Assembly (NCBI RefSeq): GCF_055900595.2
Contig: NZ_CM148325.1
Direction: 5' to 3' (one strand)
DNA length: 64,000 nt
Part shown: one piece after another, positions 1 through 54,153 of the stretch
Numbering within the stretch: the stretch's first letter is position 1
Layout: every line of letters begins with the position of its first letter
The notes under the pieces: model-generated
What the model was told of the DNA's origin: nothing
Seen by the model: only the letters and a program-made list of their open reading frames with translations
Database searches by the model: none
Position numbers and translations under genes: made by a program

Positions 1-38
1 TCCACACCCACAGGAAAATGTTGTCGAAAAGCGTGTAA
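1..38 (+). CDS. mrdB: 3' end of rod-shape peptidoglycan glycosyltransferase RodA (partial, 5' end off-window)
   Basis: Frame 3 reads ...HTHRKMLSKSV then TAA at 36-38, matching the RodA C-terminus as I recall it; the expected neighbour upstream of rlpA. Only ~11 codons visible. Confidence 0.5.
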   Translation, partial: HTHRKMLSKSV

Positions 39-48
39 GAGGTGCGCA

Positions 49-1137
49 ATGCGTAAGCAGTGGCTCGGGATCTGCATCGCGGCAGGAATGCTCGCGGCAT
101 GTACAAGCGATGATGGTCAGCAACAGACGGTAAGTGTACCGCAGCCTGCGGTATGTAACGGCCCCATAGTTGAAATTAGCGGGGCGGACCCGCGTTTCGA
201 ACCACTGAACGCGACGGCAAATCAGGATTACCAGCGCGACGGTAAAAGCTACAAAATCGTGCAGGATCCGTCTCGATTTAGCCAGGCGGGACTGGCGGCA
301 ATCTATGATGCCGAACCCGGCAGTAACCTGACGGCCTCTGGCGAAGCATTCGATCCGACACAGCTGACAGCGGCCCATCCAACGCTTCCGATCCCCAGCT
401 ACGCCAGAATCACTAACCTGGCTAACGGGCGAATGATCGTGGTGCGCATTAATGATCGCGGTCCTTACGGCAACGACCGCGTTATTTCGCTTTCTCGCGC
501 GGCAGCTGACCGTCTTAACACGTCAAACAACACCAAAGTTCGTATCGATCCGATTATTGTCGCCCAGGATGGTTCGCTTTCTGGTCCTGGTATGGCCTGT
601 ACCACAGTTGCCAAACAGACTTACGCCCTGCCTGCACCTCCCGATTTAAGCGGTGGCGCGGGAACAAGTTCAGTGTCTGGCCCGCAGGGTGACATTCTTC
701 CGGTCAGTAATTCGACGCTAAAAAGCGAAGATCCGACCGGCGCGCCGGTAACCAGCAGCGGTTTCCTCGGTGCACCAACGACGTTAGCGCCTGGTGTGCT
801 GGAAGGCAGCGAACCAACACCTGCGCCACAGCCCGTTGTTACAGCTCCCTCGACAACGCCTGCAACCTCGCCTGCAATGGTGACACCGCAAGCCGCCTCG
901 CAAAGCACTAGCGGCAACTTTATGGTGCAAGTTGGGGCCGTAAGCGATCAGGCGCGTGCGCAACAGTACCAACAGCAACTGGGACAGAAGTTCGGCGTCC
1001 CCGGTCGCGTAACTCAAAATGGCGCGGTCTGGCGGATCCAGCTTGGCCCATTCGCCAGCAAAGCCGAAGCCAGTACCTTGCAGCAACGTTTGCAAACCGA
1101 AGCCCAATTACAGTCATTTATTACCACCGCGCAGTAG
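49..1137 (+). CDS. rlpA: Septal ring lytic transglycosylase / rare lipoprotein A, with C-terminal SPOR domain
   Basis: 362-aa ORF; lipoprotein signal with lipobox LAAC; Pro/Thr/Ser-rich linker; recognised RlpA sequence. Confidence 0.93.
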   Translation: MRKQWLGICIAAGMLAACTSDDGQQQTVSVPQPAVCNGPIVEISGADPRFEPLNATANQDYQRDGKSYKIVQDPSRFSQAGLAAIYDAEPGSNLTASGEAFDPTQLTAAHPTLPIPSYARITNLANGRMIVVRINDRGPYGNDRVISLSRAAADRLNTSNNTKVRIDPIIVAQDGSLSGPGMACTTVAKQTYALPAPPDLSGGAGTSSVSGPQGDILPVSNSTLKSEDPTGAPVTSSGFLGAPTTLAPGVLEGSEPTPAPQPVVTAPSTTPATSPAMVTPQAASQSTSGNFMVQVGAVSDQARAQQYQQQLGQKFGVPGRVTQNGAVWRIQLGPFASKAEASTLQQRLQTEAQLQSFITTAQ

Positions 1138-1276
1138 CGTAAAGCAGGCATCTGATGTGTCAATTTCTGTAAATGACGTTAACAAAGTCACGCGGAAAGT
1201 CAGATGCCTGCCGGTAGTGCATTTGCTATAGTAGGGCACTTTTTTTAATTCCATCACGGATGTCGTAGTTCAGACC

Positions 1277-2488
1277 ATGAATACCATTTTTTCCGCTCGT
1301 ATCATGAAGCGCCTGGCGCTCACCACGGCTCTTTGCACAGCCTTTATCTCTGCTGCACATGCCGATGACCTGAATATCAAAACTATGATCCCGGGTGTAC
1401 CGCAGATCGATGCGGAGTCCTACATCCTGATTGACTATAACTCGGGCAAAGTGCTCGCCGAACAGAACGCAGATGTCCGCCGCGATCCTGCCAGCCTGAC
1501 CAAAATGATGACCAGTTACGTTATCGGCCAGGCAATGAAAGCCGGTAAATTTAAAGAAACTGATTTAGTCACCATCGGCAACGACGCATGGGCCACCGGT
1601 AACCCGGTATTTAAAGGTTCTTCGCTGATGTTCCTCAAACCGGGCATGCAGGTTCCGGTTTCTCAGCTGATCCGCGGTATTAACCTGCAATCGGGTAACG
1701 ATGCTTGCGTCGCCATGGCCGATTTTGCCGCTGGTAGCCAGGACGCTTTTGTTGGCTTGATGAACAGCTACGTTAACGCACTGGGCCTGAAAAACACTCA
1801 CTTCCAGACCGTGCACGGTCTCGACGCTGACGGTCAGTACAGCTCCGCGCGAGATATGGCGCTGATCGGCCAGGCGTTGATCCGTGACGTACCGAATGAA
1901 TACTCGATCTATAAAGAAAAAGAATTTACGTTTAACGGTATTCGCCAGCTGAACCGTAACGGCCTGTTATGGGATAACAGCCTGAATGTCGACGGCATCA
2001 AAACCGGACACACTGACAAAGCAGGTTACAACCTTGTTGCTTCTGCGACTGAAGGCCAGATGCGCTTGATCTCTGCGGTGATGGGCGGACGTACTTTTAA
2101 AGGCCGTGAAGCCGAAAGTAAAAAACTGCTAACCTGGGGCTTCCGTTTCTTCGAAACCGTTAACCCACTGAAAGTAGGTAAAGAGTTCGCCTCTGAACCG
2201 GTTTGGTTTGGTGATTCTGATCGCGCTTCGTTAGGTGTTGATAAAGACGTGTACCTGACCATTCCGCGTGGCCGCATGAAAGATCTGAAAGCCAGCTATG
2301 TGCTGAACAGCAGTGAATTGCATGCGCCGCTGCAAAAGAATCAGGTCGTCGGTACTATCAACTTCCAGCTTGATGGCAAAACGATTGAACAACGCCCGCT
2401 GGTTGTGCTGCAAGAAATCCCGGAAGGCAACTTCTTCGGCAAAATCATTGATTACATTAAGTTAATGTTCCATCACTGGTTTGGTTAA
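1277..2488 (+). CDS. dacA: D-alanyl-D-alanine carboxypeptidase PBP5
   Basis: 403-aa ORF, signal peptide, SLTK (SxxK) active-site motif, recognised DacA sequence. Confidence 0.95.
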
Positions 2489-2597
2489 AAATCGAACACT
2501 TGAAAGTGTGATTTCCGCCCCCATATACTAAGCATCAGTAAAAAACTCCCGCCTTCTGGCGGGAGTTGCTATTTAATTACGTTACGCCGGAGCTGAC

Positions 2598-2861
2598 ATG
2601 AAAACCAAACTTAACGAACTGCTTGAATTCCCTACTCCTTTTACTTACAAAGTTATGGGGCAGGCGTTACCTGAGCTGGTTGATCAGGTGGTTGAAGTGG
2701 TACAGCGCCATGCGCCAGGTGACTACACCCCAACGGTAAAACCAAGCAGCAAAGGCAACTACCACTCGGTATCTATCACTATCAACGCCACTCATATTGA
2801 GCAGGTTGAAACACTGTATGAAGAACTGGGCAAAATCGATATTGTCCGCATGGTTCTGTAA
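2598..2861 (+). CDS. ybeD: UPF0250 protein YbeD
   Basis: 87-aa ORF matching YbeD; conserved position upstream of lipB. Confidence 0.9.
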
Positions 2862-2961
2862 CTCGCGTATTCTTTACCCGGCCCCTGGTCGGGTAACTCC
2901 CCTCTCCTCGCTGTGATATACTTTTCCCCCACTTTTACTCATTCTCCACGGAGATGCCGTT

Positions 2962-3603
2962 TTGTATCAGGATAAAATTCTTGTCCGCCAGCTCGGTCTT
3001 CAGCCTTACGAGCCAATCTCCCAGGCTATGCATGAATTCACCGATACCCGCGATGAAAGTACTCTTGATGAAATCTGGCTGGTCGAGCACTATCCGGTAT
3101 TCACCCAAGGGCAGGCAGGAAAAGCGGAGCACATTTTAATGCCGGGCGATATTCCGGTGATCCAAAGCGATCGCGGTGGGCAGGTGACTTATCACGGGCC
3201 GGGGCAACAGGTGATGTATGTGTTGCTTAACCTGAAACGCCGTAAACTCGGTGTGCGTGAACTGGTGACCTTGCTCGAGCAAACAGTGGTGAATACCCTG
3301 GCTGAACTGGGTATAGAAGCACATCCTCGGGCTGACGCGCCTGGTGTCTATGTCGGGGAAAAGAAAATTTGCTCACTTGGCTTACGTATTCGGCGCGGTT
3401 GTTCATTCCACGGTCTGGCATTAAACGTCAATATGGATCTTTCGCCATTTTTACGTATTAATCCTTGTGGGTATGCCGGAATGGAAATGGCTAAAATATC
3501 ACAATGGAAACCCGAAGCGACAACTAATAATATTGCACCGCGTTTGCTAGAAAATATTTTAGTGCTACTAAACAATCCCGACTTCGAATATATTACCGCT
3601 TAA
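2962..3603 (+). CDS. lipB: Octanoyltransferase (lipoyl(octanoyl) transferase)
   Basis: 213-aa ORF beginning at TTG ([12 protein letters not shown]...), matches LipB, which is known to use a TTG start. Confidence 0.92.
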
Positions 3604-3862
3604 TTACATACATCAATGGCCCAATTTACACTGGGTCATTACTCATAATACCTGCTAATGCTTTACTTCTCCTTCGCGTTTGTATATTTTCTTTATCACT
3701 TGCAGAAATGCGATGCAATGCTTCGCTCCGTAACTCACCCCATTGATTAACTTATTGAAATAGTTGACTATGGTGAGCAAAAGCGTTCCATTCAAATTAG
3801 ATATAAGATTATTGTAATTTTTTTAAATATTATTTTTCCATGAATAAAATTGGAGTAAGTGC

Positions 3863-4816
3863 GTGGATAGTAATAATCAAATTGAACCCTGTTTAAGCAG
3901 AAAGTCGTCAGAAGGTAAACCACAAATATTTACAACCTTACGAAATATTGATCTTAACCTTCTGACTATTTTTGAAGCTGTGTATGTGCATAAAGGGATC
4001 GTTAATGCAGCGAAAGTGCTTAATCTGACACCCTCGGCAATCAGTCAGTCTATTCAGAAACTGCGCGTTATATTCCCTGACCCATTGTTTATTCGCAAAG
4101 GCCAGGGCGTCACTCCTACTGCATTTGCAATGCATTTGCATGAGTATATCAGTCAGGGCCTTGAATCCATTCTCGGCGCGCTGGATATCGAAGGAACCTA
4201 TGATAAGCAACGAACGATAACTATCGCGACCACCCCCTCGGTCGGAGCCCTGGTCCTTCCTGTCATCTATCGGGCGATTAAATCTCACTATCCGCAGCTT
4301 TTACTGCGCACCCCCCCCATCAGCGACGCGGAAAACCAACTCAGTCAGTTTCAAACCGATCTCATCATCGATAACATGTTTTGCACCAATCGTACGGTGC
4401 AACATCATGTTCTGTTCACCGACAATATGGTGTTAATTTGCCGCGAGGGAAATCCGCTACTCTCTTTAGAAGATGACAGAGAGACTATTGACAACGCTGC
4501 GCATATACTCCTGTTACCGGAAGGGCAAAATTTCAGCGGTCTGCGGCAGAGAGTTCAAGAGATGTTTCCGGACCGGCAAATCAGTTTCACCAGCTACAAC
4601 ATTTTGACAATCGCTGCACTGGTTGCCAACAGTGACATGTTAGCGATTATTCCCAGCCGTTTTTATAACCTGTTTAGCCGTTGCTGGCCGCTGGAAAAAC
4701 TGCCTTTTCCGTCCTTAAATGAGGAGCAAGTAGATTTCTCTATCCACTACAACAAATTCAGCCTGCGTGATCCCATCCTGCACGGGGTAATAGATGTTAT
4801 CCGTAATGCATTTTGA
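3863..4816 (+). CDS. ybeF: LysR-family transcriptional regulator YbeF
   Basis: 317-aa ORF with GTG start; N-terminal HTH (LTPSAISQSIQKLR); paralogous to YbdO later in the window. Confidence 0.85.
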   Translation: MDSNNQIEPCLSRKSSEGKPQIFTTLRNIDLNLLTIFEAVYVHKGIVNAAKVLNLTPSAISQSIQKLRVIFPDPLFIRKGQGVTPTAFAMHLHEYISQGLESILGALDIEGTYDKQRTITIATTPSVGALVLPVIYRAIKSHYPQLLLRTPPISDAENQLSQFQTDLIIDNMFCTNRTVQHHVLFTDNMVLICREGNPLLSLEDDRETIDNAAHILLLPEGQNFSGLRQRVQEMFPDRQISFTSYNILTIAALVANSDMLAIIPSRFYNLFSRCWPLEKLPFPSLNEEQVDFSIHYNKFSLRDPILHGVIDVIRNAF

Positions 4817-5024
4817 AAAAGTATTGTTACAGCCAGATCACAGCGAAGAACGAAAAAATGGCACAATCCAACAACAATTTTACATTTTCGCGACCGCTTT
4901 GGCTGCTTTCAGGTCCGTTTCAATGATATACTGCCAGTCGTTAATTCAAAAATAGTTGATAATTACAACAATCTATTGAATTGAAACGCTTTCCTTCGTA
5001 ATTCGCAACTGGAACACGCACGCT

Positions 5025-5990
5025 ATGAGTAAACCCATTGTGATGGAACGCGGTGTTAAATACCGCGATGCCGATAAGATGGCCCTTATCCCGGTTAAAA
5101 ACGTGGCAACAGAGCGCGAAGCCCTGCTGCGCAAGCCGGAATGGATGAAAATCAAGCTTCCAGCGGACTCTACACGTATCCAGGGCATCAAAGCCGCAAT
5201 GCGCAAAAATGGCCTGCATTCTGTCTGCGAGGAAGCCTCCTGCCCTAACCTGGCGGAATGCTTCAACCACGGCACAGCAACGTTTATGATCCTCGGCGCT
5301 ATTTGTACCCGCCGTTGTCCGTTCTGTGACGTTGCCCACGGTCGCCCGGTAGCTCCGGATGCCAATGAACCAGTGAAACTGGCGCAGACCATTGCCGATA
5401 TGGCGCTGCGTTATGTGGTTATCACCTCCGTTGACCGTGATGACCTGCGCGATGGCGGTGCCCAGCACTTTGCGGATTGCATTACTGCCATTCGGGAAAA
5501 AAGCCCGCAAATCAAAATTGAAACTCTGGTGCCGGATTTCCGCGGTCGTATGGATCGTGCTCTGGATATTCTGACCGCCACACCACCAGATGTGTTCAAC
5601 CATAACCTGGAAAACGTACCGCGTATTTACCGTCAGGTACGGCCTGGTGCAGATTACAACTGGTCGCTGAAGCTGCTGGAACGCTTTAAAGAAGCGCATC
5701 CGGAAATCCCGACCAAGTCTGGGCTGATGGTGGGTCTGGGTGAAACCAATGAAGAAATTATTGAGGTAATGCGCGACCTGCGCCGTCATGGTGTGACGAT
5801 GCTAACGCTGGGGCAATATTTGCAGCCAAGCCGCCATCACCTGCCGGTTCAACGTTACGTTAGCCCGGATGAGTTCGACGAAATGAAAGCCGAAGCGCTG
5901 GCGATGGGCTTTACCCATGCTGCATGCGGTCCGTTTGTCCGCTCGTCTTACCACGCCGATTTGCAGGCGAAAGGGATGGAAGTTAAGTAA
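5025..5990 (+). CDS. lipA: Lipoyl synthase (radical SAM)
   Basis: 321-aa ORF; CxxxCxxC radical-SAM motif (CTRRCPFC) and second Cys cluster ([12 protein letters not shown]). Confidence 0.96.
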
Positions 5991-6020
5991 TCCTGTAATA
6001 ATTACTTACATCTGTCTGAT

Positions 6021-6051
6021 AAAAAACCCGCTTTTTGAAGCGGGTTTTTTG
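6021..6051. terminator. Bidirectional rho-independent terminator between convergent lipA and tatE
   Basis: aaaaaacccgctttttgaagcgggtttttt: GC stem flanked by A-run and T-run. Confidence 0.75.
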
Positions 6052-6090
6052 TATCGAACAAGATATTGAGGGAGCGTCCTGCTCGCCACG

Positions 6091-6294
6091 TCACTCTTTA
6101 TGAGAGAGCTTTTCAGCCTGAAGATCAACGTCTGCGCCTTTTTTCGCCGCAGCATCGTCATCATTCATCGCCTTCTTGAACCCTTTAATGGCCGCTCCAA
6201 GGTCTCCGCCCAGCGTACGTAACTTCTTAGTCCCAAACAGCAGAACGACCAGCGCCGCAACCACCAGCAGTTTGGTAATACTAATCTCACCCAT
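6091..6294 (-). CDS. tatE: Sec-independent protein translocase component TatE
   Basis: 67-aa [36 protein letters not shown]..., TatA/E family. Confidence 0.93.
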
Positions 6295-6422
6295 AGATAC
6301 CTTCTTGACATATAACCGGCAACAGAACGCGCCTTAAAAACCAGAGAATATTAACGGTCATTCGACGCGCGCACACAATAGCAATCTGTAACAAGGTGAA
6401 TCAAGCGCCGAGTAAAAAAACA

Positions 6423-7211
6423 TCATAATAATTGCGGCGGCGCAAAGCGACGGTTGTTTAAGACGGGCAGTTGCGCGCGCACCTGACGCACACGTTCGGG
6501 CGTCACTTCCGCCATAATGAGTGCAGGCATTTCTGACGCTGCCGCAATGGTGACGCCAAAGGGATCTATAATCCGGCTTTGCCCGATATTTTTGTTCCCG
6601 CACTCCCCCGCCGCCACCATATAACAGGTGGTATCCAGCGCACGAGCGGCAAGCAACGTTGACCAGTGATGCTCTTTGAGCGGCCCGCGAACCCAGGCGG
6701 CAGGAAGTACCAGAATTTCAGCTCCCTGTAATGCCTGTGCCAGCGCCAGCTCTGGAAAGCGTAAGTCATAACAGGTCATCAGACCGACCTTCATCCCTTC
6801 CACCTCCAGTAACGGAGCTATTTCATTACCAGCATCAACATGGCGTGATTCCTGAATGGCAAATGCATCATAGAGATGCAGTTTGGCATAACGGGCGACG
6901 ATGTTTCCTGCCTGTAGCGCCACCAGCATATTCCATGCGCGCCCCGGCGTTGAAGGAACATGAATCGTCAGAATTGTCGTCATCATGTTACGTTTACTTT
7001 CTCGCCGTAAACGTCCGAGAAATTCGCCTTCCAGCAGCTGTGCTGATTTAACCGATAGATCTGCATCATGATCATCACGCGCCAACAATGCTTCCGGCAG
7101 GACAAACAGCGAAACGTCGTTTTCCGCCGCCTGCGCCATCAACGAGGCACAAATCTCAGCGTTCTTTTCCCACACAGATGTAACAGCAAACTGTCCTGCG
7201 GCAACCAGCAT
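6423..7211 (-). CDS. ybeM: Carbon-nitrogen hydrolase (nitrilase superfamily; deaminated glutathione amidase-like), apparently intact
   Basis: ORF 6423..7217 starts at GTG; preferred start is the ATG at 7209-7211, preceded by GGAGGAG with a 6-nt spacer (262 aa). Nitrilase-like catalytic Cys context ([10 protein letters not shown]). Confidence 0.8.
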
Positions 7212-7306
7212 TGCCACCTCCTCCTGTCAGAGTCGTAAAATTCGCCAACGGCGATTATTCGGCGTTACACTTATCACTCATACAAATCAAATAGCAGGAT
7301 TTTGCA

Positions 7307-7690
7307 GTGTTACAACTTCTTTTAGCAGTTTTTATTGGCGGTGGTACGGGAAGCGTGGCGAGATGGCTGTTAAGTATGCGATTTAACCCGCTGCATCAGG
7401 CGATTCCGTTGGGGACGCTGGCTGCAAACCTGATTGGGGCATTCATCATAGGAATGGGATTCGCCTGGTTTAGCAGGATGACGAACATTGATCCAGTGTG
7501 GAAAGTATTAATCACCACCGGATTTTGTGGCGGTCTAACAACCTTCTCAACATTTTCGGCAGAAGTGGTGTTTTTGTTACAAGAGGGCCGCTTTGGCTGG
7601 GCATTACTGAACGTTTTCGTCAACCTTCTGGGGTCTTTTGCCATGACCGCACTGGCTTTCTGGCTGTTTTCGGCCTCAACCGCACACTAA
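7307..7690 (+). CDS. crcB: Fluoride-specific ion channel CrcB/FluC
   Basis: 127-aa hydrophobic ORF with GTG start, matches CrcB. Confidence 0.9.
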
Positions 7691-7695
7691 AGACC

Positions 7696-7724
7696 AAAAA
7701 AAACCCGCTGATTAAGCGGGTTTT
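7696..7724. terminator. Bidirectional rho-independent terminator between convergent crcB and cspE
   Basis: aaaaaaacccgctgattaagcgggtttt hairpin with flanking A-run and T-run. Confidence 0.75.
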
Positions 7725-7743
7725 GAATTCTTGCTGACGTATC

Positions 7744-7953
7744 TTACAGAGCGATTACGTTTGCAGCAGAAGGGCCTTTGGCACCGTTAGTGATTTCGAA
7801 CTCTACGCGCTGACCTTCAGCAAGAGTTTTAAAACCATTAGTCTGGATTGCAGAGAAGTGTACGAACACGTCTTTGCTGCCGTCTTCCGGAGTAATGAAA
7901 CCGAATCCTTTGGACTCATTAAACCACTTAACGTTACCTTTAATCTTAGACAT
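7744..7953 (-). CDS. cspE: Cold-shock-domain protein CspE
   Basis: Supplied ORF is 97 aa from TTG; the internal ATG at 7951-7953 gives the 69-aa [33 protein letters not shown]... CspE sequence with RNP1 motif KGFGFI. Confidence 0.95.
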
Positions 7954-8127
7954 CAAAATTACCTTTACATGAAAAATAGACACAAATGCTGTGTCGGTTA
8001 CCAGTACACCAATTGTGGTACGCTTTGTCCAGTGCAACTTTACTAAAAAGTGATAAAAGTCGCGTTATTTTTGATGTTAATTATTTTAGTCATTGATTTT
8101 AAAGAAGTTACTAAAATTTCATTTGTC

Positions 8128-8688
8128 TCAAAACTGAAAGCGCATCCAGGCAAAGTACACATTGCCATTGTTATAGGTACCCGGAATGTAGGTCATCTGA
8201 AAAGTCACTGGACCATAACCCACAGAGGCCAATGGCAGTAGAACCGGGAGAGGGATGTAATTCCAGTTATCGCGTGCCGTTACGCCAGCGGTGAATCCCA
8301 GTCCTAAATGAAAATTTTCATCCGCCAGCGGTCGCCAGGTACTTTCCCATCCGTATCCGGCAATCGGTTCCCATTTGTTCCACGAGTCCTTAAATGCCAT
8401 GGCATACAGGCCATGCCAGTTTCCTTTTTCATCCCAACGCGACTGACCAAAACCGCCCCCCCACGGTCGCTCGTTATAGCGATCGGTTTTTTCTTTGTCG
8501 TAAGCGAAACGAGCATGCCAGGTGATGGCAGGAATATATAAATCATAATGTTCAGGCTGTTGCCAGGTTTGTGTAATATTTTCTCCAAACGTTGTCATCC
8601 ACTCATCTGCGTTAGCTAAAACTTTACCAACGCTGATTAACTGAATAAAAACAAAGGAAAATATAGCGACATATTTACTCACGTTCAT
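8128..8688 (-). CDS. pagP: Lipid A palmitoyltransferase PagP (outer-membrane beta-barrel)
   Basis: ORF trimmed to the internal ATG at 8686-8688 ([12 protein letters not shown]..., 186 aa), matching PagP/CrcA. Confidence 0.92.
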
Positions 8689-9173
8689 TTGTGACCATAA
8701 AACATTTATCAAAAATCTACTACTAGCATAGCAAAACTACAATTAACATAACCTTAATAGACCCAACATGAAGAATAATCTGAATAGCTGCTCTATTTAT
8801 TTCCGCTTGTTCAAGTTAAATATTTCCGCGCATCGATTAAAGATGATGCGTCGTTTTCTGCGATGGGAATAGTCAAAAAAGAAAAACCAAGTCTTTTTTG
8901 ATGACAAAATGCAATCAAAGAAAAATTATTTTATTTTTTAACTAGATACAACAATCATCTTAACGAAGTATATAATATATATCGTCAACCCATGCTCATG
9001 GTAGATTATTTTATGAGCACACAACCGCAGCTAACACCATTGCAATTAACAAATTTGCATCAATCCACCATCAATTTACACACATTATTATGTGATAATT
9101 GCCAACCGCTAAATATGCGTTTTGTTATCTATGTATAAAAACAGCAACTTCAATGTCTTAATGGCAGTTTTTC

Positions 9174-9187
9174 TTGATTTTAATCAG
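9174..9187. promoter_or_regulatory. Putative FNR box upstream of dcuC
   Basis: TTGATtttaATCAg matches 9 of 10 positions of the FNR consensus TTGAT-N4-ATCAA, centred ~96 bp upstream of the dcuC ATG; dcuC is known to be anaerobically induced. Confidence 0.5.
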
Positions 9188-9276
9188 CATTCACCGCCAA
9201 TTTATTGGGCATATTTTTTCCTTAAGCTTTAGGAATTTTTTATTATTTACCTTGGGGCCTGGAGACAGGAAAAATT

Positions 9277-10662
9277 ATGCTGACATTCATTGAACTCCTT
9301 ATTGGGGTTGTGGTTATTGTGGGTGTAGCTCGCTACATCATTAAAGGGTATTCCGCCACCGGCGTGTTATTTGTCGGTGGCCTGTTATTGCTGATTATCA
9401 GTGCCATTATGGGGCACAAAGTGTTACCGTCCAGCCAGGCTTCAACAGGCTACAGCGCCACGGATATCGTTGAATACGTTAAAATATTGCTAATGAGCCG
9501 CGGCGGCGACCTCGGCATGATGATTATGATGCTGTGTGGCTTTGCCGCTTACATGACCCATATCGGCGCGAATGATATGGTGGTCAAGCTGGCGTCAAAA
9601 CCATTGCAGTATATTAACTCCCCTTACCTGCTGATGATTGCCGCCTATTTTGTCGCCTGTCTGATGTCTCTGGCCGTCTCTTCCGCAACCGGTCTGGGTG
9701 TTTTGCTGATGGCAACCCTGTTTCCGGTGATGGTAAACGTTGGTATCAGTCGTGGCGCAGCAGCTGCAATTTGTGCCTCTCCAGCGGCGATTATTCTTGC
9801 ACCGACTTCAGGGGATGTGGTGCTGGCGGCGCAGGCTTCCGAAATGTCGCTGATTGATTTCGCCTTCAAAACGACGCTGCCTATCTCGATTGCTGCGATT
9901 ATCGGCATGGCGATCGCCCACTTCTTCTGGCAACGTTATCTGGATAAAAAAGAGCACATCTCTCATGAAATGTTAGATGTCAGTGAAATCACCACCACTG
10001 CCCCTGCGTTTTACGCCATTCTGCCGTTCACGCCGATCATCGGAGTACTGATTTTTGACGGCAAATGGGGTCCGCAATTACACATCATCACAATTCTGGT
10101 GATCTGTATGCTGATTGCCTCCATTCTGGAGTTCATTCGCAGCTTTAATACTCAGAAAGTGTTCTCGGGCCTGGAAGTGGCTTATCGCGGGATGGCAGAT
10201 GCGTTTGCTAACGTGGTGATGCTGCTGGTTGCCGCTGGGGTATTCGCTCAGGGGCTTAGCACCATCGGCTTTATTCAAAGTCTGATTTCTATCGCCACTT
10301 CGTTTGGTTCGGCGAGTATCATCCTGATGCTGGTATTGGTGATCCTGACAATGCTGGCAGCAGTCACGACCGGTTCAGGCAATGCGCCGTTTTATGCGTT
10401 TGTTGAGATGATCCCGAAACTGGCGCACTCTTCCGGCATTAACCCGGCGTATTTGACTATCCCAATGCTGCAGGCGTCAAACCTCGGTCGTACCCTGTCA
10501 CCCGTTTCTGGCGTAGTCGTTGCGGTTGCCGGGATGGCGAAAATCTCACCATTTGAAGTCGTAAAACGCACCTCGGTGCCGGTGCTTGTTGGGCTGGTGA
10601 TTGTTATCGTTGCTACAGAGCTGATGGTGCCAGGAACGGCAGCCGCGGTAACAGGCAAGTAA
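9277..10662 (+). CDS. dcuC: Anaerobic C4-dicarboxylate transporter DcuC
   Basis: 461-aa polytopic membrane ORF matching DcuC; intact. Confidence 0.93.
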   Translation: MLTFIELLIGVVVIVGVARYIIKGYSATGVLFVGGLLLLIISAIMGHKVLPSSQASTGYSATDIVEYVKILLMSRGGDLGMMIMMLCGFAAYMTHIGANDMVVKLASKPLQYINSPYLLMIAAYFVACLMSLAVSSATGLGVLLMATLFPVMVNVGISRGAAAAICASPAAIILAPTSGDVVLAAQASEMSLIDFAFKTTLPISIAAIIGMAIAHFFWQRYLDKKEHISHEMLDVSEITTTAPAFYAILPFTPIIGVLIFDGKWGPQLHIITILVICMLIASILEFIRSFNTQKVFSGLEVAYRGMADAFANVVMLLVAAGVFAQGLSTIGFIQSLISIATSFGSASIILMLVLVILTMLAAVTTGSGNAPFYAFVEMIPKLAHSSGINPAYLTIPMLQASNLGRTLSPVSGVVVAVAGMAKISPFEVVKRTSVPVLVGLVIVIVATELMVPGTAAAVTGK

Positions 10663-10702
10663 ATAGTCATGCCGGAGGCAAGCTTCCTCCGGCTTTATCA
10701 TG

Positions 10703-11383
10703 TCACCCACTGTGGTATATGCGTTGCGGTCTGCCAACTTTGCCGTGAACAATTTCAGCAATAATCAGATGGCGGCTGGCGCAATATTCAAGATAACGTC
10801 TGGCAGTGGTGCGGCTGATAGTCAGTGCCTGCGCCACCGTTTCTGCCGTATGTTGCACACCAGGCTCTTTAAACAGTTTTCGCACCGCGTTTAGCGTCAA
10901 GGGGTCAATGCCGGTCGGCAGTTCGTCTTTGGGTTCACCGCGAGCATAGGCATTAAACATCTCATCGATTTGCTTCTGGCTGGCGCTATCAATACTTTCC
11001 AGCATATGTTTACGCTGGCGGAAACGGGTTAGCGTTTGCCCCAGCCGTTCATAGGCAATTGGCTTAATGAGATAATCAAATACACCACAACGTACGGCTT
11101 CAGACACCGTTTCCATATCACTGGCTGCAGTGGTAAACACCACGTCGCCGGGATAATGCGCCTGCACCAGTTCATGCAGTAAATTAATCCCTCTACCGTC
11201 AGGAAGATAGTTATCGAGCAAGATTAGCCCCGGCTTAAAACGCTCGATCATCATTCGGGCCTGCGCCAGGTTTCCCGCCAGTAATATCTGACTGAATCCG
11301 GGAATGTGACGAATATATTCCGCATGCATCTCTGCCAGCGGCGTTTCGTCCTCAACGATCAATAGGGTTAATGGAGCTGTCAT
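10703..11383 (-). CDS. dpiA: Two-component response regulator DpiA (CitB)
   Basis: 226-aa ORF with receiver domain (LLIVEDE..., LILLDNYLPDG) and C-terminal HTH; overlaps the dpiB 3' end by 32 nt. Confidence 0.93.
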   Translation of the reverse strand: MTAPLTLLIVEDETPLAEMHAEYIRHIPGFSQILLAGNLAQARMMIERFKPGLILLDNYLPDGRGINLLHELVQAHYPGDVVFTTAASDMETVSEAVRCGVFDYLIKPIAYERLGQTLTRFRQRKHMLESIDSASQKQIDEMFNAYARGEPKDELPTGIDPLTLNAVRKLFKEPGVQHTAETVAQALTISRTTARRYLEYCASRHLIIAEIVHGKVGRPQRIYHSG

Positions 11384-13010
11384 TAGGTTTCACTTTCGGA
11401 ATATAGATTGAAAATAAGGTACCGCAGGGATCATTATCTTCGAGAGTGATAACACCACCGCAGCGCGTTACGTAGCTGGCAATCAAGTACAACCCAATGC
11501 CATGTTCGCCGGGCTCGTCAGCACGCGTACTGACACCCTGCTCAAATATTTTGTCTCGTAGAGACTCTGGAACGCCGCAGCCCTGATCGGCGACTTCAAT
11601 CACCACATCATCGCCTTCATCGCTGAGGAATAATTCAACGATCTTGTTTCCTTCATCGCTACGCAGGCTGGCTTCGAAGGCGTTATCAAGTAAATTGCCA
11701 ACAATGGCTGCAAACTCGGTGCTGTCCAGTCCTGGCGGCAGTTGCGAAAGATGACTTCCGGGGACGATGACCATTTTTAGCCCCAGTTCGCGGGCGCGCT
11801 GCACTTTACCAAAAAGCAGCCCCGCCACCTGGCGATCGGCAAACGCCTCGCGCAGGCTATCAATAAGCTGTTGCTGGGCCTGAGACTCCCCCTGCACCAT
11901 CGCCAACACGCGATCATACTCTTTCATCTGCAACAGACCATTGAGCGTCGACATCCAATTGAGATGCTCGTGTCGCAATGTGCGCAGGCTCTCGACGTAT
12001 TGTTTAATTTGCGTCAGTTGTGCATTGAGGGTGGATATTTCGTCTTTACTACGAAAGCTGATAATGGCCCCCAGCAAATCATCACCAGAACGAATAGCTT
12101 CCCGGTTGGCAATAACGCTCAGACCGTTAAAGTTCGCCACCACATCCTGACGTTTTTCATCAATCTGTTCGGTAAAGAAATCGGCGGGCCTGACCACTTC
12201 AGCAATGGGTTTACCCAACCATTGCCGTCCGGGGGAACTCAGCCCCAGCATCTTTCTTGCGTTACGATTGATGGCGGTAATGTAACCGTGCGGATCCACC
12301 GCAATCAGCCCTTCATAAACCGAACTAAACAGCGCCTCTTGCTGACGGACCACGCGTGCGATTTGCTTTGGCTCCATGCCCATCATTTGCCGACGGATAT
12401 GCGCGGCCAGGAACCACGACAGCAACATCAGAATCCCTAACAGCACGACAAACACGCCAGCCATCGGTAATAAAAACTCAGCCCGCCAGCTATCGATTTT
12501 ACTCACCAGGTAGCCAATCGACACCACGCCGATGACTTTTCCATCGTCATCAAAGATTGGCGTTTTGGCACGCATCGCCATGCCAATTGACCCTTTCCCG
12601 GTGATAAAGTAGCTCTCCCCTTTCTCCAGCGCGCCCGGTTTGGTGAACTGCATAGGATAACCAATTTTCTCCGGATTAGGATGGTAAAGACGAATCGAGT
12701 GCCGATCGCCAATCACCACATAATCGAAATCAGTATCTCTTTGTAATTTGTCAGCGATGGTCGCCAGCCTCTTGTAGTCACGCGTTTTCACTGCGCTGAT
12801 GATACTGTCATTAGAAGCAATAATTTTTGCCTGATTCATTGCCATGTCGCGCACATGAAGCGTTAAATAGTCCTCAAAACTGGCCGTAAAATATTGCGCC
12901 AGGGCTGCAATGACAAATATTGAGAACACCAGAATCAGCAAAAAGATACGCAGCGGAAATGCCAGTCTTTGGAAAAATGCAAACTGTTTATTCTCGTTAA
13001 GCTGCAACAT
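11352..13010 (-). CDS. dpiB: Sensor histidine kinase DpiB (CitA), citrate-responsive
   Basis: ORF trimmed to the ATG at 13008-13010 (MLQLNENKQF..., 552 aa); two TM segments, H-box and ATPase motifs. Confidence 0.92.
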   Translation of the reverse strand: MLQLNENKQFAFFQRLAFPLRIFLLILVFSIFVIAALAQYFTASFEDYLTLHVRDMAMNQAKIIASNDSIISAVKTRDYKRLATIADKLQRDTDFDYVVIGDRHSIRLYHPNPEKIGYPMQFTKPGALEKGESYFITGKGSIGMAMRAKTPIFDDDGKVIGVVSIGYLVSKIDSWRAEFLLPMAGVFVVLLGILMLLSWFLAAHIRRQMMGMEPKQIARVVRQQEALFSSVYEGLIAVDPHGYITAINRNARKMLGLSSPGRQWLGKPIAEVVRPADFFTEQIDEKRQDVVANFNGLSVIANREAIRSGDDLLGAIISFRSKDEISTLNAQLTQIKQYVESLRTLRHEHLNWMSTLNGLLQMKEYDRVLAMVQGESQAQQQLIDSLREAFADRQVAGLLFGKVQRARELGLKMVIVPGSHLSQLPPGLDSTEFAAIVGNLLDNAFEASLRSDEGNKIVELFLSDEGDDVVIEVADQGCGVPESLRDKIFEQGVSTRADEPGEHGIGLYLIASYVTRCGGVITLEDNDPCGTLFSIYIPKVKPNDSSINPIDR

Positions 13011-13389
13011 TGTTTTCCTTGCGGGTTGTCCCGAGCCTCTTTGACGGATGTAATTAAAATGTTGAATCAAAATACATAGATATTAAATATAATCGTGGCA
13101 AATTTTATTCATTAAATCAATTAAATCACTTAAACCTGCGGGTCATTTCGTAATTACATTAATTAAAAAACTTAAAACCATTAAATAAATAAAAAACCAC
13201 TAACTCTATGTGAAATAAATCAAAATTTCACGCTGCAATACTCCTTAGGATGTATAGCGAAAGGAGAAAAAGATATACCTCGATCGCCCCCCTTTCTCCC
13301 AAGTGAAAATAAAAGGTTATCAGTTTGCAACATCGAACAACATTCGTTGCAAATCGATAACAACATGCACCTTCAGGATACTATTTATT

Positions 13390-14448
13390 ATGTTCGGCAA
13401 TGATATTTTCACCCGTGTAAAACGTTCAGAAAATAAAAAAATGGCGGAAATCGCCCAATTCCTGCATGAAAATGATTTGAGCGTTGACACCACAGTCGAA
13501 GTATTTATTACCGTAACCCGCGATGAAAAGCTTATCGCGTGCGGTGGAATTGCCGGAAATATTATTAAATGCGTTGCTATCAGTGAATCCGTTCGCGGTG
13601 AAGGACTGGCGCTGACATTAGCCACTGAATTGATAAACCTCGCCTATGAGCGGCACAGCACGCATCTGTTTATTTATACCAAAACCGAATACGAGGCGCT
13701 GTTCCGCCAGTGCGGTTTTTCCACGCTGACCAGTGTACCCGGCGTGATGGTGCTGATGGAAAACAGCGCCACGCGACTGAAACGCTATGCCGAATCGCTG
13801 AAAAAATTTCGTCATCCAGGGAACAAGATTGGCTGCATTGTGATGAACGCCAATCCCTTTACGAATGGTCACCGTTATCTGATTCAACAGGCTGCAGCAC
13901 AGTGCGACTGGTTGCATCTGTTTTTAGTTAAAGAAGATTCTTCACGCTTTCCCTATGAAGACCGGCTGGATCTGGTGTTAAAAGGCACCGCCGATATTCC
14001 ACGCCTGACTGTGCATCGCGGCTCCGAATACATCATCTCCCGCGCTACGTTCCCTTGCTACTTCATTAAAGAACAGAGCGTCATTAACCATTGTTACACC
14101 GAAATTGATCTGAAGATTTTCCGTCAGTACCTCGCTCCCGCGCTGGGTGTAACTCACCGCTTTGTCGGTACTGAACCCTTTTGTCGCGTTACCGCCCAGT
14201 ACAACCAGGATATGCGCTACTGGCTGGAAACGCCGACTATCTCCGCACCGCCCATCGAACTGGTTGAAATTGAGCGGCTGCGTTACCAGGAGATGCCGAT
14301 ATCCGCTTCCCGGGTACGTCAACTGCTGGCGAAAAACGATCTCACGGCTATCGCGCCGCTGGTCCCTGCAGTCACGCTGCATTATTTGCAGAACCTGCTT
14401 GAGCACTCCCGCCAGGACGCGGCAGCTCGTCAAAAGACCCCCGCATGA
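13390..14448 (+). CDS. citC: [Citrate (pro-3S)-lyase] ligase
   Basis: ORF trimmed to MFGNDIFTRV... (352 aa); first gene of citCDEFXG, divergent from dpiB. Confidence 0.9.
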   Translation: MFGNDIFTRVKRSENKKMAEIAQFLHENDLSVDTTVEVFITVTRDEKLIACGGIAGNIIKCVAISESVRGEGLALTLATELINLAYERHSTHLFIYTKTEYEALFRQCGFSTLTSVPGVMVLMENSATRLKRYAESLKKFRHPGNKIGCIVMNANPFTNGHRYLIQQAAAQCDWLHLFLVKEDSSRFPYEDRLDLVLKGTADIPRLTVHRGSEYIISRATFPCYFIKEQSVINHCYTEIDLKIFRQYLAPALGVTHRFVGTEPFCRVTAQYNQDMRYWLETPTISAPPIELVEIERLRYQEMPISASRVRQLLAKNDLTAIAPLVPAVTLHYLQNLLEHSRQDAAARQKTPA

Positions 14449-14462
14449 GAAACAGGTGAAAA

Positions 14463-14759
14463 ATGAAAATAAACCAGCCCGCCGTTGCAGGCACCCTTGA
14501 GTCTGGGGATGTGATGATACGCATCGCCCCACTCGATACGCAGGATATCGACCTGCAAATCAACAGCAGCGTTGAAAAACAGTTTGGTGATGCCATTCGC
14601 ACCACCATTCTGGACGTTCTCGCCCGCTACAACGTGCGCGGCGTACAGCTGAATGTCGATGACAAAGGCGCACTGGACTGCATTTTACGTGCACGACTGG
14701 AAGCCCTGCTGGCACGCGCCAGCGGTATCCCGGCTCTGCCATGGGAGGATTGCCAATGA
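14463..14759 (+). CDS. citD: Citrate lyase acyl carrier protein (gamma subunit)
   Basis: 98-aa [26 protein letters not shown]... matches CitD. Confidence 0.93.
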
Positions 14760-15664
14760 TTTCCGCTTCGCTGCAACAACGTAAAACTCGCACCCGCCGC
14801 AGCATGTTGTTTGTGCCTGGTGCCAATGCCGCGATGGTCAGCAACTCATTCATCTACCCGGCTGATGCCCTGATGTTTGACCTCGAAGACTCCGTAGCAT
14901 TACGTGAAAAAGACACCGCCCGCCGCATGGTTTACCACGCGCTGCAACATCCGCTGTATCGCGATATTGAAACCATTGTGCGTGTAAACGCGCTGGATTC
15001 CGAATGGGGTGTCAACGACCTGGAAGCCGTCGTTCGCGGTGGTGCGGACGTTGTGCGTCTGCCGAAAACCGATACCGCTCAGGATGTTCTGGATATCGAA
15101 AAAGAGATCCTGCGTATCGAAAAAGCCTGTGGTCGTGAACCCGGCAGTACCGGCTTGCTGGCGGCGATTGAATCTCCACTGGGCATTACCCGCGCAGTGG
15201 AAATCGCTCACGCTTCCGAGCGTTTGATCGGTATCGCCCTCGGTGCAGAAGACTATGTGCGCAACCTGCGTACAGAACGCTCCCCGGAAGGAACTGAACT
15301 GCTGTTCGCTCGCTGCTCCATTTTGCAGGCCGCGCGATCTGCGGGTATTCAGGCGTTCGATACCGTCTATTCTGACGCAAACAACGAAGCCGGATTCCTG
15401 CAAGAAGCCGCCCATATCAAACAGCTGGGCTTTGACGGCAAATCGCTGATCAACCCGCGTCAGATTGATCTGCTGCACAACCTCTACGCACCGACCCAGA
15501 AAGAAGTGGATCACGCCCGCCGCGTCGTAGAAGCCGCTGAAGCCGCCGCTCGCGAAGGCCTCGGCGTGGTTTCCCTGAACGGCAAGATGGTGGACGGTCC
15601 GGTTATCGATCGCGCCCGTCTGGTGCTCTCCCGTGCAGAACTTTCCGGCATCCGCGAAGAATAA
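14756..15664 (+). CDS. citE: Citrate lyase beta subunit (citryl-CoA lyase)
   Basis: Start [10 protein letters not shown]... overlaps the citD stop (ATGA); 302 aa. Confidence 0.92.
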
Positions 15665-15674
15665 GGCAATCAAA

Positions 15675-17207
15675 ATGACGCAGAAAATTGAACAATCTCA
15701 ACGACAAGAACGGGTAGCGGCCTGGAATCGTCGCGCTGAATGCGATCTTGCCGCTTTCCAGAACTCGCCAAAGCAAACCTACCAGGCTGAAAAAGCGCGC
15801 GATCGCAAACTGTGCGCCAACCTGGAAGAAGCGATTCGTCGCTCGGGTTTACAGGACGGCATGACGGTTTCCTTCCATCACGCTTTCCGTGGCGGTGACC
15901 TGACCGTCAATATGGTGATGGACGTCATCGCGAAGATGGGCTTTAAAAACCTGACTCTGGCCTCCAGCTCCCTGAGTGATTGCCATGCGCCGCTGGTAGA
16001 ACACATTCGCCAGGGCGTGGTTACCCGCATTTATACCTCTGGCCTGCGCGGTCCACTGGCGGAAGAAATCTCCCGTGGTCTGCTGGCGGAACCGGTGCAA
16101 ATCCACTCTCACGGCGGACGTGTGCATCTGGTACAGAGCGGCGAACTGAATATCGATGTGGCTTTCCTCGGCGTCCCGTCCTGTGATGAATTCGGTAATG
16201 CCAACGGCTACACCGGTAAAGCCTGCTGCGGCTCCCTCGGCTATGCAATGGTTGATGCCGACAACGCAAAACAGGTCGTGATGCTTACCGAAGAACTGCT
16301 GCCTTATCCGCATAATCCGGCAAGCATTGAGCAAGATCAGGTTGATCTGATCGTCAAAGTTGATCGCGTTGGCGATGCTGCAAAAATCGGCGCTGGTGCT
16401 ACCCGTATGACCACTAACCCGCGCGAACTGCTTATTGCCCGTAGCGCTGCGGATGTGATTGTTAACTCTGGCTACTTCAAAGAAGGTTTCTCCATGCAGA
16501 CCGGCACCGGCGGCGCATCGCTGGCGGTAACCCGTTTCCTGGAAGACAAAATGCGTAGCCGCGATATTCGCGCTGACTTCGCCCTCGGTGGTATTACCGC
16601 AACGATGGTTGATCTGCACGAAAAAGGTCTGATCCGCAAACTGCTGGATGTGCAGAGCTTTGACAGCCACGCTGCACAATCGCTGGCCCGTAACCCCAAT
16701 CACATCGAAATCAGCGCCAACCAGTACGCTAACTGGGGTTCAAAAGGTGCATCGGTTGATCGTCTCGACGTGGTGGTACTGAGCGCGCTGGAAATTGACA
16801 CCCAGTTCAACGTTAACGTGCTGACCGGCTCTGACGGCGTACTGCGTGGCGCTTCCGGTGGTCACTGCGATACCGCGATTGCCTCTGCACTTTCCATCAT
16901 CGTCGCACCGCTGGTACGCGGTCGTATTCCGACTCTGGTGGATAACGTGCTGACCTGCATCACCCCGGGCTCCAGTGTCGATATTCTGGTCACAGACCAC
17001 GGTATCGCAGTTAACCCGGCACGTCCGGAACTGGCAGAACGTCTGCAGGAAGCGGGGATCAAAGTGGTTTCTATTGAGTGGCTGCGTGAACGTGCGCGTC
17101 TGCTGACCGGTGAACCACAGCCGATTGAATTCACCGACCGCGTCGTTGCCGTTGTGCGTTACCGCGATGGCTCGGTGATCGATGTTGTGCATCAGGTGAA
17201 GGAATAA
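15675..17207 (+). CDS. citF: Citrate lyase alpha subunit (citrate CoA-transferase)
   Basis: Start MTQKIEQSQRQ... (510 aa), upstream in-frame extension rejected. Confidence 0.92.
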   Translation: MTQKIEQSQRQERVAAWNRRAECDLAAFQNSPKQTYQAEKARDRKLCANLEEAIRRSGLQDGMTVSFHHAFRGGDLTVNMVMDVIAKMGFKNLTLASSSLSDCHAPLVEHIRQGVVTRIYTSGLRGPLAEEISRGLLAEPVQIHSHGGRVHLVQSGELNIDVAFLGVPSCDEFGNANGYTGKACCGSLGYAMVDADNAKQVVMLTEELLPYPHNPASIEQDQVDLIVKVDRVGDAAKIGAGATRMTTNPRELLIARSAADVIVNSGYFKEGFSMQTGTGGASLAVTRFLEDKMRSRDIRADFALGGITATMVDLHEKGLIRKLLDVQSFDSHAAQSLARNPNHIEISANQYANWGSKGASVDRLDVVVLSALEIDTQFNVNVLTGSDGVLRGASGGHCDTAIASALSIIVAPLVRGRIPTLVDNVLTCITPGSSVDILVTDHGIAVNPARPELAERLQEAGIKVVSIEWLRERARLLTGEPQPIEFTDRVVAVVRYRDGSVIDVVHQVKE

Positions 17208-17210
17208 GCC

Positions 17211-18615
<1,405 letters not shown>

Positions 18616-18665
18616 TTATTTAAGCACTTGATAAATTTGGAAATATTAATTTTCGGAGAACCCGT

Positions 18666-20129
18666 ATGTCTTTAGCAAAAGATAATATATGGAAACTATT
18701 GGCCCCACTGGTGGTGATGGGCGTCATGTTTCTTATCCCTGTCCCCGACGGTATGCCACCGCAGGCATGGCATTACTTCGCTGTGTTTGTGGCAATGATT
18801 GTCGGCATGATCCTCGAGCCAATTCCGGCAACAGCGATCAGTTTTATTGCGGTTACTATTTGCGTTATTGGCAGTAATTACCTTCTCTTTGATGCCAAAG
18901 AATTAGCTGACCCAGCGTTTAATGCGCAAAAACAGGCGCTGAAATGGGGTCTGGCTGGTTTTTCCAGCACCACGGTATGGCTGGTATTTGGTGCATTTAT
19001 TTTTGCATTAGGGTATGAAGTTTCCGGGTTAGGTCGTCGCATTGCCCTTTTCCTGGTGAAATTCATGGGCAAACGCACGCTGACGTTAGGTTATGCGATA
19101 GTCATTATCGACATTCTGCTGGCACCGTTTACACCTTCCAACACCGCGCGTACCGGGGGTACGGTTTTTCCGGTCATTAAAAACCTGCCGCCGCTGTTTA
19201 AATCATTCCCGAACGATCCGTCCGCGCGTCGTATTGGCGGCTATTTGATGTGGATGATGGTCATTAGTACCAGTCTGAGTTCGTCCATGTTTGTCACCGG
19301 TGCGGCACCAAACGTGCTGGGTCTGGAGTTCGTCAGCAAAATTGCCGGCATCCAGATTAGCTGGTTGCAGTGGTTCCTCTGCTTCCTGCCGGTTGGCGTT
19401 ATCTTACTTATCATTGCGCCGTGGCTTTCCTACGTGCTTTACAAACCGGAAATCACACACAGTGAAGAAGTAGCAACCTGGGCGGGTGATGAACTAAAAA
19501 CCATGGGTGCGCTGACACGCAGAGAGTGGACGCTGATTGGCCTTGTATTGCTCAGCTTAGGTTTGTGGGTATTTGGCAGTGAAGTCATTAATGCTACTGC
19601 GGTAGGTCTGCTGGCAGTTTCGCTAATGCTGGCCCTGCACGTTGTGCCGTGGAAAGACATTACCCGCTATAACAGCGCATGGAACACGCTGGTCAACCTG
19701 GCAACTTTGGTTGTGATGGCTAATGGCCTGACTCGTTCTGGCTTTATTGACTGGTTCGCCGGTACCATGAGTACGCACCTGGAAGGATTCTCACCAAACG
19801 CAACGGTGATTGTACTGGTTCTGGTGTTCTACTTTGCGCACTACCTGTTTGCCAGCCTGTCTGCGCACACCGCAACCATGCTGCCGGTTATTCTGGCCGT
19901 CGGTAAAGGTATTCCGGGCGTACCAATGGAACAACTGTGTATCCTGCTGGTGCTGTCTATCGGTATCATGGGCTGTCTGACGCCGTATGCAACCGGTCCT
20001 GGGGTGATTATTTATGGCTGCGGCTATGTGAAATCAAAAGATTACTGGCGACTTGGTGCAATCTTCGGGGTGATTTACATCTCTATGTTGCTGTTGGTTG
20101 GCTGGCCGATTCTCGCCATGTGGAACTAA
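18666..20129 (+). CDS. citT: Citrate:succinate antiporter
   Basis: 487-aa polytopic membrane ORF matching CitT. Confidence 0.93.
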   Translation: MSLAKDNIWKLLAPLVVMGVMFLIPVPDGMPPQAWHYFAVFVAMIVGMILEPIPATAISFIAVTICVIGSNYLLFDAKELADPAFNAQKQALKWGLAGFSSTTVWLVFGAFIFALGYEVSGLGRRIALFLVKFMGKRTLTLGYAIVIIDILLAPFTPSNTARTGGTVFPVIKNLPPLFKSFPNDPSARRIGGYLMWMMVISTSLSSSMFVTGAAPNVLGLEFVSKIAGIQISWLQWFLCFLPVGVILLIIAPWLSYVLYKPEITHSEEVATWAGDELKTMGALTRREWTLIGLVLLSLGLWVFGSEVINATAVGLLAVSLMLALHVVPWKDITRYNSAWNTLVNLATLVVMANGLTRSGFIDWFAGTMSTHLEGFSPNATVIVLVLVFYFAHYLFASLSAHTATMLPVILAVGKGIPGVPMEQLCILLVLSIGIMGCLTPYATGPGVIIYGCGYVKSKDYWRLGAIFGVIYISMLLLVGWPILAMWN

Positions 20130-21689: not shown

Positions 21690-22044
21690 TCCCATCTGCA
21701 CAAGCGACAACTCGCTTTGCCCAGAGGATGCACTCGCATCCTCTTTCCGCTCAAATATCAACCAGATTTATCATTTTGCTCTTAAGCACAGCATTCTAAT
21801 CTGAACTGGTTATTCATCTGCGGAACCCCATATGAGCGAAGCTCTCAGTATCACTGCGTTTTATATATTCATAGCAGCTATTATTGTTGCTGCAGTGCTA
21901 TACCTTGAACAACGCTGGTAGTACCTGGTTTTATTTATTTTCCAGATCAATCGCAAATTCAGATCGAATCAGCCTCGCAAATCATAGATTCATAATCAAT
22001 AATGTGCTGTTATGTATACATGCAAAAACAAGGAGAGAATGCTT

Positions 22045-53523: not shown

Positions 53524-54153
53524 ATGGTCGACATGAAAACTACGCATACCTCCCTCCCCTTTGCAGGACATACGCTGCATTTTGTTGAGTTCGATCCAGT
53601 GAGTTTTCGCGAGCAGGATTTACTCTGGCTGCCACACTACGCACAACTGCAACACGCTGGACGTAAACGTAAAACAGAGCATTTAGCCGGACGGATCGCT
53701 GCTGTTTACGCCTTGCGGGAATATGGCTATAAATGTGTGCCCGCAATCGGCGAGCTACGCCAACCTGTGTGGCCTGCGGAGGTATACGGCAGTATTAGCC
53801 ACTGCGGGACTACGGCATTAGCCGTGGTATCTCGTCAACCGATTGGCATTGATATCGAAGAGATTTTCTCTGTACAAACCGCAAGAGAATTGACAGACAA
53901 CATTATTACACCAGCAGAACACGAGCGACTCGCAGAATGCGGTTTAACCTTTTCTCTGGCGCTGACACTGGCATTTTCCGCCAAAGAGAGCGCATTTAAG
54001 GCAAGCAAGATACAGGCCGCTCAAGGTTTTCTGGATTATCAGATAATTAGCTGGAATAAACAGCAGATCATCATTCGACTAGAGGATGAGCAGTTTGCTG
54101 TGCACTGGCAGATAAAAGAAAAAATAGTCATAACGCTGTGCCAACACGATTAA
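53524..54153 (+). CDS. entD: 4'-phosphopantetheinyl transferase for EntB/EntF
   Basis: Trimmed to MVDMKTTHTSLPFAGHTLHF... (209 aa); the supplied ORF extends upstream across the REP. Confidence 0.9.
   Translation: MVDMKTTHTSLPFAGHTLHFVEFDPVSFREQDLLWLPHYAQLQHAGRKRKTEHLAGRIAAVYALREYGYKCVPAIGELRQPVWPAEVYGSISHCGTTALAVVSRQPIGIDIEEIFSVQTARELTDNIITPAEHERLAECGLTFSLALTLAFSAKESAFKASKIQAAQGFLDYQIISWNKQQIIIRLEDEQFAVHWQIKEKIVITLCQHD

Follow-up and report, generated by a model that had tools for sequence, protein, structure and literature searches.

An intact ybeM, predicted to encode a deaminated glutathione amidase, in a non-K-12 Escherichia coli sequence, and the one-base deletion in its K-12 counterpart

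The gene ybeM was analyzed within a stretch of 64,000 nucleotides, referred to here as the window, in which it lies on the minus strand between crcB and tatE. According to the ORF listing and to direct translation, its coding sequence begins with an ATG at 7211-7209, ends with a TGA at 6425-6423 and comprises 262 sense codons (789 nt including the stop codon) in an unbroken frame. An uninterrupted frame of 262 codons had already been described at 6423-7211 in the first-pass annotation; its coordinates and length were correct, and the strand, which had been left unstated, is minus. The ORF listing prolongs the frame by two codons upstream to a GTG (7217), a position placed within the spacer between the Shine-Dalgarno sequence and the ATG. 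RefSeq, on identical DNA (NZ_CP098223.1), starts the gene at the ATG (789 nt, WP_001305561.1) and names its product deaminated glutathione amidase. The following features were assigned at and around the locus:

6091-6294, minus strand: tatE, downstream neighbor of ybeM on the same strand (ORF, synteny, annotation)
6423-7211, minus strand: ybeM, predicted deaminated glutathione amidase of the nitrilase superfamily (ORF, PF00795, NF033621, WP_001305561.1)
7217-7225, minus strand: Shine-Dalgarno region AGGAGGAGG, separated from the ATG by 5 nt (TGGCA)
7307-7690, plus strand: crcB (fluoride exporter), divergent upstream neighbor of ybeM (ORF, synteny, annotation)
7744-7953, minus strand: cspE, lying within a cspA-thermoregulator match

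On the coding strand, the sequence 5′ of and including the start reads GAC AGGAGGAGG TGGCA ATG, which places a perfect Shine-Dalgarno motif, AGGAGG(T), at a distance of 5 nt from the start codon. The motif GGAGGAG, which had been reported before the start codon, is indeed present, since it is contained in this upstream stretch at 7217-7225. The Shine-Dalgarno region is polymorphic in length, with (AGG)3 in the window and its nearest relatives and (AGG)2 in K-12 and CFT073. Both forms keep AGGAGG at a distance of 5 nt from the ATG and, therefore, translation is not expected to be affected. The intergenic region between crcB and ybeM measures 95 bp, tatE sits 128 bp past the ybeM stop codon and lipA comes next; this order (crcB-ybeM-tatE-lipA, an orthologous position) is the same in the window, K-12, CFT073 and strain Z0117EC0005. 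A simple and insensitive scan of the 95-bp spacer revealed no sigma-70 consensus promoter, and scanning of 5990-7420 gave no consensus promoter and two weak terminator-like hairpins, which were not above shuffled sequence. A fluoride riboswitch was also considered for the crcB-ybeM spacer and rejected, as a search of 5900-8200 against Rfam at the gathering threshold gave only a cspA-type element at cspE. The latter match (cspA-thermoregulator, 7696-8054, minus strand, 123 bits) spans cspE and its leader.

Protein family models were searched with the translated sequence. YbeM matches Pfam PF00795 (CN_hydrolase) with an E-value of 4.2e-41 and 141.4 bits, compared to a gathering score of 23.2, and the match spans residues 3-245 of the protein and positions 2-255 of the 256 positions of the model. 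Thus, the assignment to the nitrilase superfamily, made previously from the sequence, was recovered over the full length of the family. The NCBIfam model NF033621 (deaminated glutathione amidase) was matched with 451.5 bits against a cut-off of 355 (E-value of 7.6e-136; model positions 2-260 of 260); an ORF with a curated-family match at this level is no chance feature. The solved structures nearest by sequence are C. elegans NitFhit (1EMS, 1.7e-29) and yeast Nit2 (4H5U, 1.1e-26), both of the Nit1 branch. E40, K110 and C147 of YbeM align with E54, K127 and C169 of NitFhit, and the codons of the catalytic set are located as follows:

7092-7094, minus strand: codon of Glu40, catalytic (aligned with NitFhit E54)
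6882-6884, minus strand: codon of Lys110, catalytic (aligned with NitFhit K127)
6849-6851, minus strand: codon of Glu121, second conserved Glu of the E-K-E-C tetrad of the superfamily (orthologue alignment)
6771-6773, minus strand: codon of Cys147, nucleophile (aligned with NitFhit C169)

All four residues are invariant in 17 of 17 enterobacterial orthologues (71-99% identity, all about 262 aa), which were drawn from Escherichia, Citrobacter, Salmonella, Leclercia, Kosakonia and Enterobacter and are mostly named deaminated glutathione amidase. With the main E. coli protein cluster (3,131 member sequences), the protein of the window shares 99% identity, and it represents the same gene as the E. 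coli YbeM described by NF033621. Among the alleles of the window, CFT073 and K-12 (the latter after repair of its frame, see below), dN/dS amounts to 0.07-0.12, and we conclude that ybeM is under purifying selection. With eukaryotic Nit1 (NitFhit 1EMS; yeast Nit2 4H5U/4HG3/4HGD), YbeM shares the superfamily branch by best match as well as an aligned Glu-Lys-Cys triad, although the alignments to the Nit1-branch structures are local only (207-251 residues). In contrast to the eukaryotic proteins, the bacterial protein is a stand-alone domain of 262 aa, without a Fhit fusion and without an N-terminal extension.

Judged from these sequence features, the segment 6423-7211 very probably holds a functional allele of ybeM, a core gene of E. 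coli, coding for a 262-residue Nit1-type amidase of deaminated glutathione (dGSH). E. coli makes glutathione, and dGSH is the useless product of transaminases acting on it; gshA and gshB are not within the window. By homology, YbeM would hydrolyze dGSH to 2-oxoglutarate and Cys-Gly and would, thus, clear a side product which transaminases make from glutathione. Given that dGSH is a useless side product, this reaction would be one of metabolite repair. Catalysis would follow the thiol-acyl-enzyme (thioester) mechanism that is standard in the superfamily; Cys147 would be the nucleophile, assisted by Glu40, Lys110 and Glu121. Both the activity and the substrate are inferred here from the curated family model and from the 2017 work on Nit1 and dGSH. 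In that work, by Peracchi and colleagues in PNAS, the Nit1 homologues of E. coli and of other glutathione-producing bacteria reportedly proved to be excellent dGSH amidases. Nit1 is described as a dGSH-hydrolyzing repair enzyme in PMC9913352 (after Peracchi et al. 2017), and PMC8788347 equates YbeM with NIT1/dGSH amidase.

The situation is different in K-12 MG1655 (NC_000913.3), whose ybeM (b4581; 658031-658818, 788 nt), likewise situated between crcB and tatE, carries a pseudogene annotation. It is the orthologous locus, with the same neighbors and 98.5% nucleotide identity to the window. The first-pass annotation had named a disrupted pseudogene in this strain, which agrees with the annotation of b4581, and had proposed an alignment in order to locate the frameshift. 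The aligned sequences are not identical across the ORF: K-12 shows a deletion of 1 nt, 12 substitutions and, in the Shine-Dalgarno region, the 3-nt AGG difference. The deletion concerns a single G at nt 200 of the coding sequence (codon 67, window position 7012, alignment column 250):

7011-7013, minus strand: codon 67 (CGT, Arg), the middle base of which is deleted in K-12 (K-12 alignment)

The pseudogene allele of the K-12 type (GGAC-TTTACGG) does not occur in the window, which has GGACGTTTACGG instead. Consequent to the missing base, the K-12 frame shifts after Gly66 and ends after 75 residues, and this product keeps only E40 of the catalytic set, without K110, E121 and C147. When the G is put back into K-12 ybeM, an ORF of 262 aa is obtained, which differs from that of the window at three positions (V33A, V37A, H124R). 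From the CFT073 allele, the protein of the window differs by D32E and G66D, and none of these differences is substantial. Independent RefSeq records of the K-12 type carry the product name “deaminated glutathione amidase, frameshifted.” Further, the jump in the b-numbers (b0624, b4581, b0627) fits a merger of two former split ORF calls. The loss of the G at nt 200 has killed the gene in K-12 MG1655 as well as in related natural and laboratory strains, and the lineage of the window never acquired the deletion. An intact ybeM and the frameshift in K-12 are already known from genome annotation as well as from published work: in MG1655, ybeM has served as a neutral site of integration, being called a “pseudo gene” (PMC4788846), and in the UPEC strains CFT073 (PMC5320621) and UTI89 (PMC6206680) it has been treated as an ordinary gene.

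The distribution of the two states was determined in complete E. coli genomes, of which 5,424 of 5,426 contain the ybeM locus. The deletion site was probed by exact-word search with 30-32-mers centered on the site, where a megablast word of 28 nt separates the alleles. The following counts were obtained:

K-12 deletion allele (32-mer): 860 of 5,426 complete genomes, all with 100% identity over the 32-mer
Intact site, window/common type (30-mer): 3,676 complete genomes
Intact site, CFT073 type (G66D; 30-mer): a further 158 complete genomes

The site is, thus, intact in at least 3,834 complete genomes. Taken together, the three probes classify 4,694 of the 5,424 genomes, and the other genomes (about 730) presumably carry nearby SNPs. 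Carriers of the deletion comprise K-12 derivatives, NCTC86 and many isolates from humans, animals, water and soil, whose genomes measure 4.7-5.1 Mb. Since natural isolates carry it, the frameshift is a natural polymorphism of the K-12-related group rather than a laboratory artifact. A natural loss that is identical by descent, present in about 16% of complete genomes with K-12-like haplotypes on its flanks and leaving a large sublineage without dGSH repair, is the account that we favor with moderate confidence. One carrier, EcN_Sk, was considered as a case of transfer of the deletion into a distant background. This was rejected, as the sequences flanking its ybeM show 99.6-99.8% identity to K-12; EcN_Sk, therefore, simply carries a K-12-like haplotype, which fits one inherited haplotype. 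Recurrent independent loss of ybeM, as might be read from clusters of truncated proteins in a large protein database (P0044 with 215 aa and 537 members, P0046 with 214 aa and 945 members, and P0059), was rejected as well. The A5-to-A4 frameshift underlying P0046 was found in 1 of the 5,426 complete genomes, and contigs encoding P0044 also show a split pagP and a split lipA. Consequently, these truncations were mostly attributed to errors of assembly or sequencing.

The functional assignment has to be weighed against the case that YbeM is an intact enzyme of the superfamily with a substrate other than dGSH, e.g., an omega-amidase of the Nit2/YafV kind, with alpha-ketoglutaramate or alpha-ketosuccinamate as its substrate, or an enzyme for another small amide. 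Specificity within this superfamily is hard to read off a sequence, and YbeM also gives weaker matches to mouse Nit2 (2W1V, 4.4e-22) and to models of the N-carbamoylputrescine amidase, nitrilase and YafV types. However, each alternative NCBIfam model remains far under its cut-off, with 61.5 bits against 249 for the YafV/omega-amidase model NF007757, 63.3 against 410 for aguB and 61.5 against 500 for nitrilase; the same applies to all other nitrilase-superfamily models of NCBIfam, including formamidase. The model of the Yersinia-type dGSH amidase (NF043013) scored 82.7 bits, below its cut-off of 500. YafV of E. coli shares the superfamily and the catalytic chemistry with YbeM, but, at 61.5 bits, YbeM is not a member of the YafV family, which is paralogous. 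In contrast, the cut-off of NF033621 is exceeded by almost 100 bits over the full length of the model, and the best structural relatives by sequence belong to the Nit1 branch. A substrate other than dGSH is, therefore, improbable.

Another reading is that the frame is open, yet the gene is silent or decayed in the lineage of the window, leaving an intact-looking relic. An open ybeM frame does not prove present-day use. The gene was lost at no obvious cost in 860 of 5,426 genomes and is evidently dispensable, as 16% of complete genomes are frameshifted; in addition, the insensitive scan revealed no consensus promoter upstream. Nevertheless, the catalytic residues and more than 100 invariant positions of the family are all kept, dN/dS is low, and the Shine-Dalgarno sequence is strong and correctly spaced. 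Moreover, the CFT073 orthologue responds to nitric oxide stress with a significant differential expression (fold change 0.30), and an NsrR ChIP peak is located nearby (PMC5320621). We, thus, regard a relic as even less probable than a different substrate, and a functional allele remains the preferred reading. Finally, the difference between K-12 and the window might itself be an artifact, caused by a sequencing error in the K-12 reference or by an assembly error in the window. No assembly error is commoner than an indel of a single base, and some of the truncated YbeM clusters come from error-ridden assemblies. However, the deletion is situated outside any homopolymer (GGAC[G]TTTA), occurs in 860 independently assembled complete genomes, is flagged as “frameshifted” by PGAP in independent records of the K-12 type, and belongs to a locus which laboratories use as a known pseudogene (PMC4788846), and the intact state occurs in at least 3,834 genomes. 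An assembly artifact is excluded by these population counts (860; 3,676; 158).

K-12 is a poor reference for ybeM, given that the majority of E. coli encode an intact, predicted dGSH amidase. The deletion is present in 860 of 5,426 genomes and, therefore, work on the repair of glutathione damage or with ybeM as a “neutral” integration site should consider the strain background. If the loss is natural, a comparison of lineages with the deletion and with an intact ybeM could reveal any fitness cost of dGSH accumulation in bacteria. The intact gene of the window matters little beyond confirming a non-K-12 source, and the census of the deletion is a mildly useful by-product.

Concerning this source, the window is collinear with K-12 665238-598847 in reverse orientation. 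Identity to K-12 across the 64 kb ranges from 91.0 to 97.9%, with the highest value over the first 21.7 kb and the lowest over dsbG-ybdD; identity to CFT073 is 95.3-97.2%. The window is clearly non-K-12, as had been suggested beforehand, and this is evident mainly from the overall divergence and from the ybeM allele. Since the frameshift is common to 860 of 5,426 genomes, the intact ybeM rules out the whole K-12-related haplotype group and not just K-12. At least 99% identity over 20000-44000 is reached by only eight complete genomes, e.g., Z0117EC0005 (NZ_CP098223.1; dog, Korea), which is 100% identical to the window over this segment and over 6300-7320, i.e., across ybeM. Over 1-20000, the same eight genomes show 99.8% identity, about eight more show 99.2-99.6%, and a broad group shows 98.6-98.7%, including 042 and PCN033, both of phylogroup D. 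None of the 5,426 complete genomes is identical over 1-20000 (best 99.8%, i.e., about 40 mismatches as estimated from the bit score). Probably, the source genome is outside this set or carries a small recombined patch. Strain typing from the window, which had been proposed as well, only bracketed the phylogroup by identity to reference strains, as the window contains none of the MLST or Clermont marker genes.

The segment 24311-31692 (dsbG-citR-ybdN-ybdM-ybdL-hcxA-ybdD) is the one with only 91.0% identity to K-12, compared to 95-98% in the flanking segments, and the block 4790-31673, which contains the dsbG-ybdD segment, shows an identity of about 96.7% to CFT073. The dsbG-ybdD segment looks like a locally divergent haplotype block, which is probably recombinant. 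Further, CFT073 and EcN_Sk have lost the portion of ybeF that corresponds to 4037-4790 of the window and that K-12 possesses as well; in both, the gene carries the annotation of a truncated pseudogene.

The absence of IS186 and of ybdR had also been taken to indicate a non-K-12 lineage. Both absences are real, given that K-12 608007-609351 (IS186B) and K-12 about 641884-643496 (ybdR) are without counterpart in the window, but both are weak lineage markers. ybdR is also missing from CFT073. At the ybdR site (21750-22027), the window contains a yldA-like ORF of 29 codons (MSEALSITAFYIFIAAIIVAAVLYLEQRW), which resembles the CFT073 form. Z0117EC0005, the closest complete relative of the window with 99.9% identity on either side, carries an element of the IS421/IS186 family exactly at the junction of the K-12 IS186B. 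The presence of the IS, thus, varies inside the clade of the window itself and is no lineage marker, and the hokE junction looks like a hotspot for IS186. In Z0117EC0005 (1405244-1406582, corresponding to window 54253-54766), this element and a single hokE replace the first hok/sok unit of the window. The window has two tandem hok/sok (hokE) units at 54174-54643 and 54676-55146, with a period of 502 nt and about 95% alike, each with a Hok ORF of 50 aa and each with one sok:

54419-54573, minus strand: sok (Rfam) of the first hok/sok unit
54921-55076, minus strand: sok (Rfam) of the second hok/sok unit

K-12, in contrast, has one hokE unit and IS186B. Annotations of many E. coli, O157:H7 and ST131 among them, show tandem hokE units, two and even three in a row. 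However, over 54100-55250, the identity of complete genomes to the window reaches 96.4% at most.
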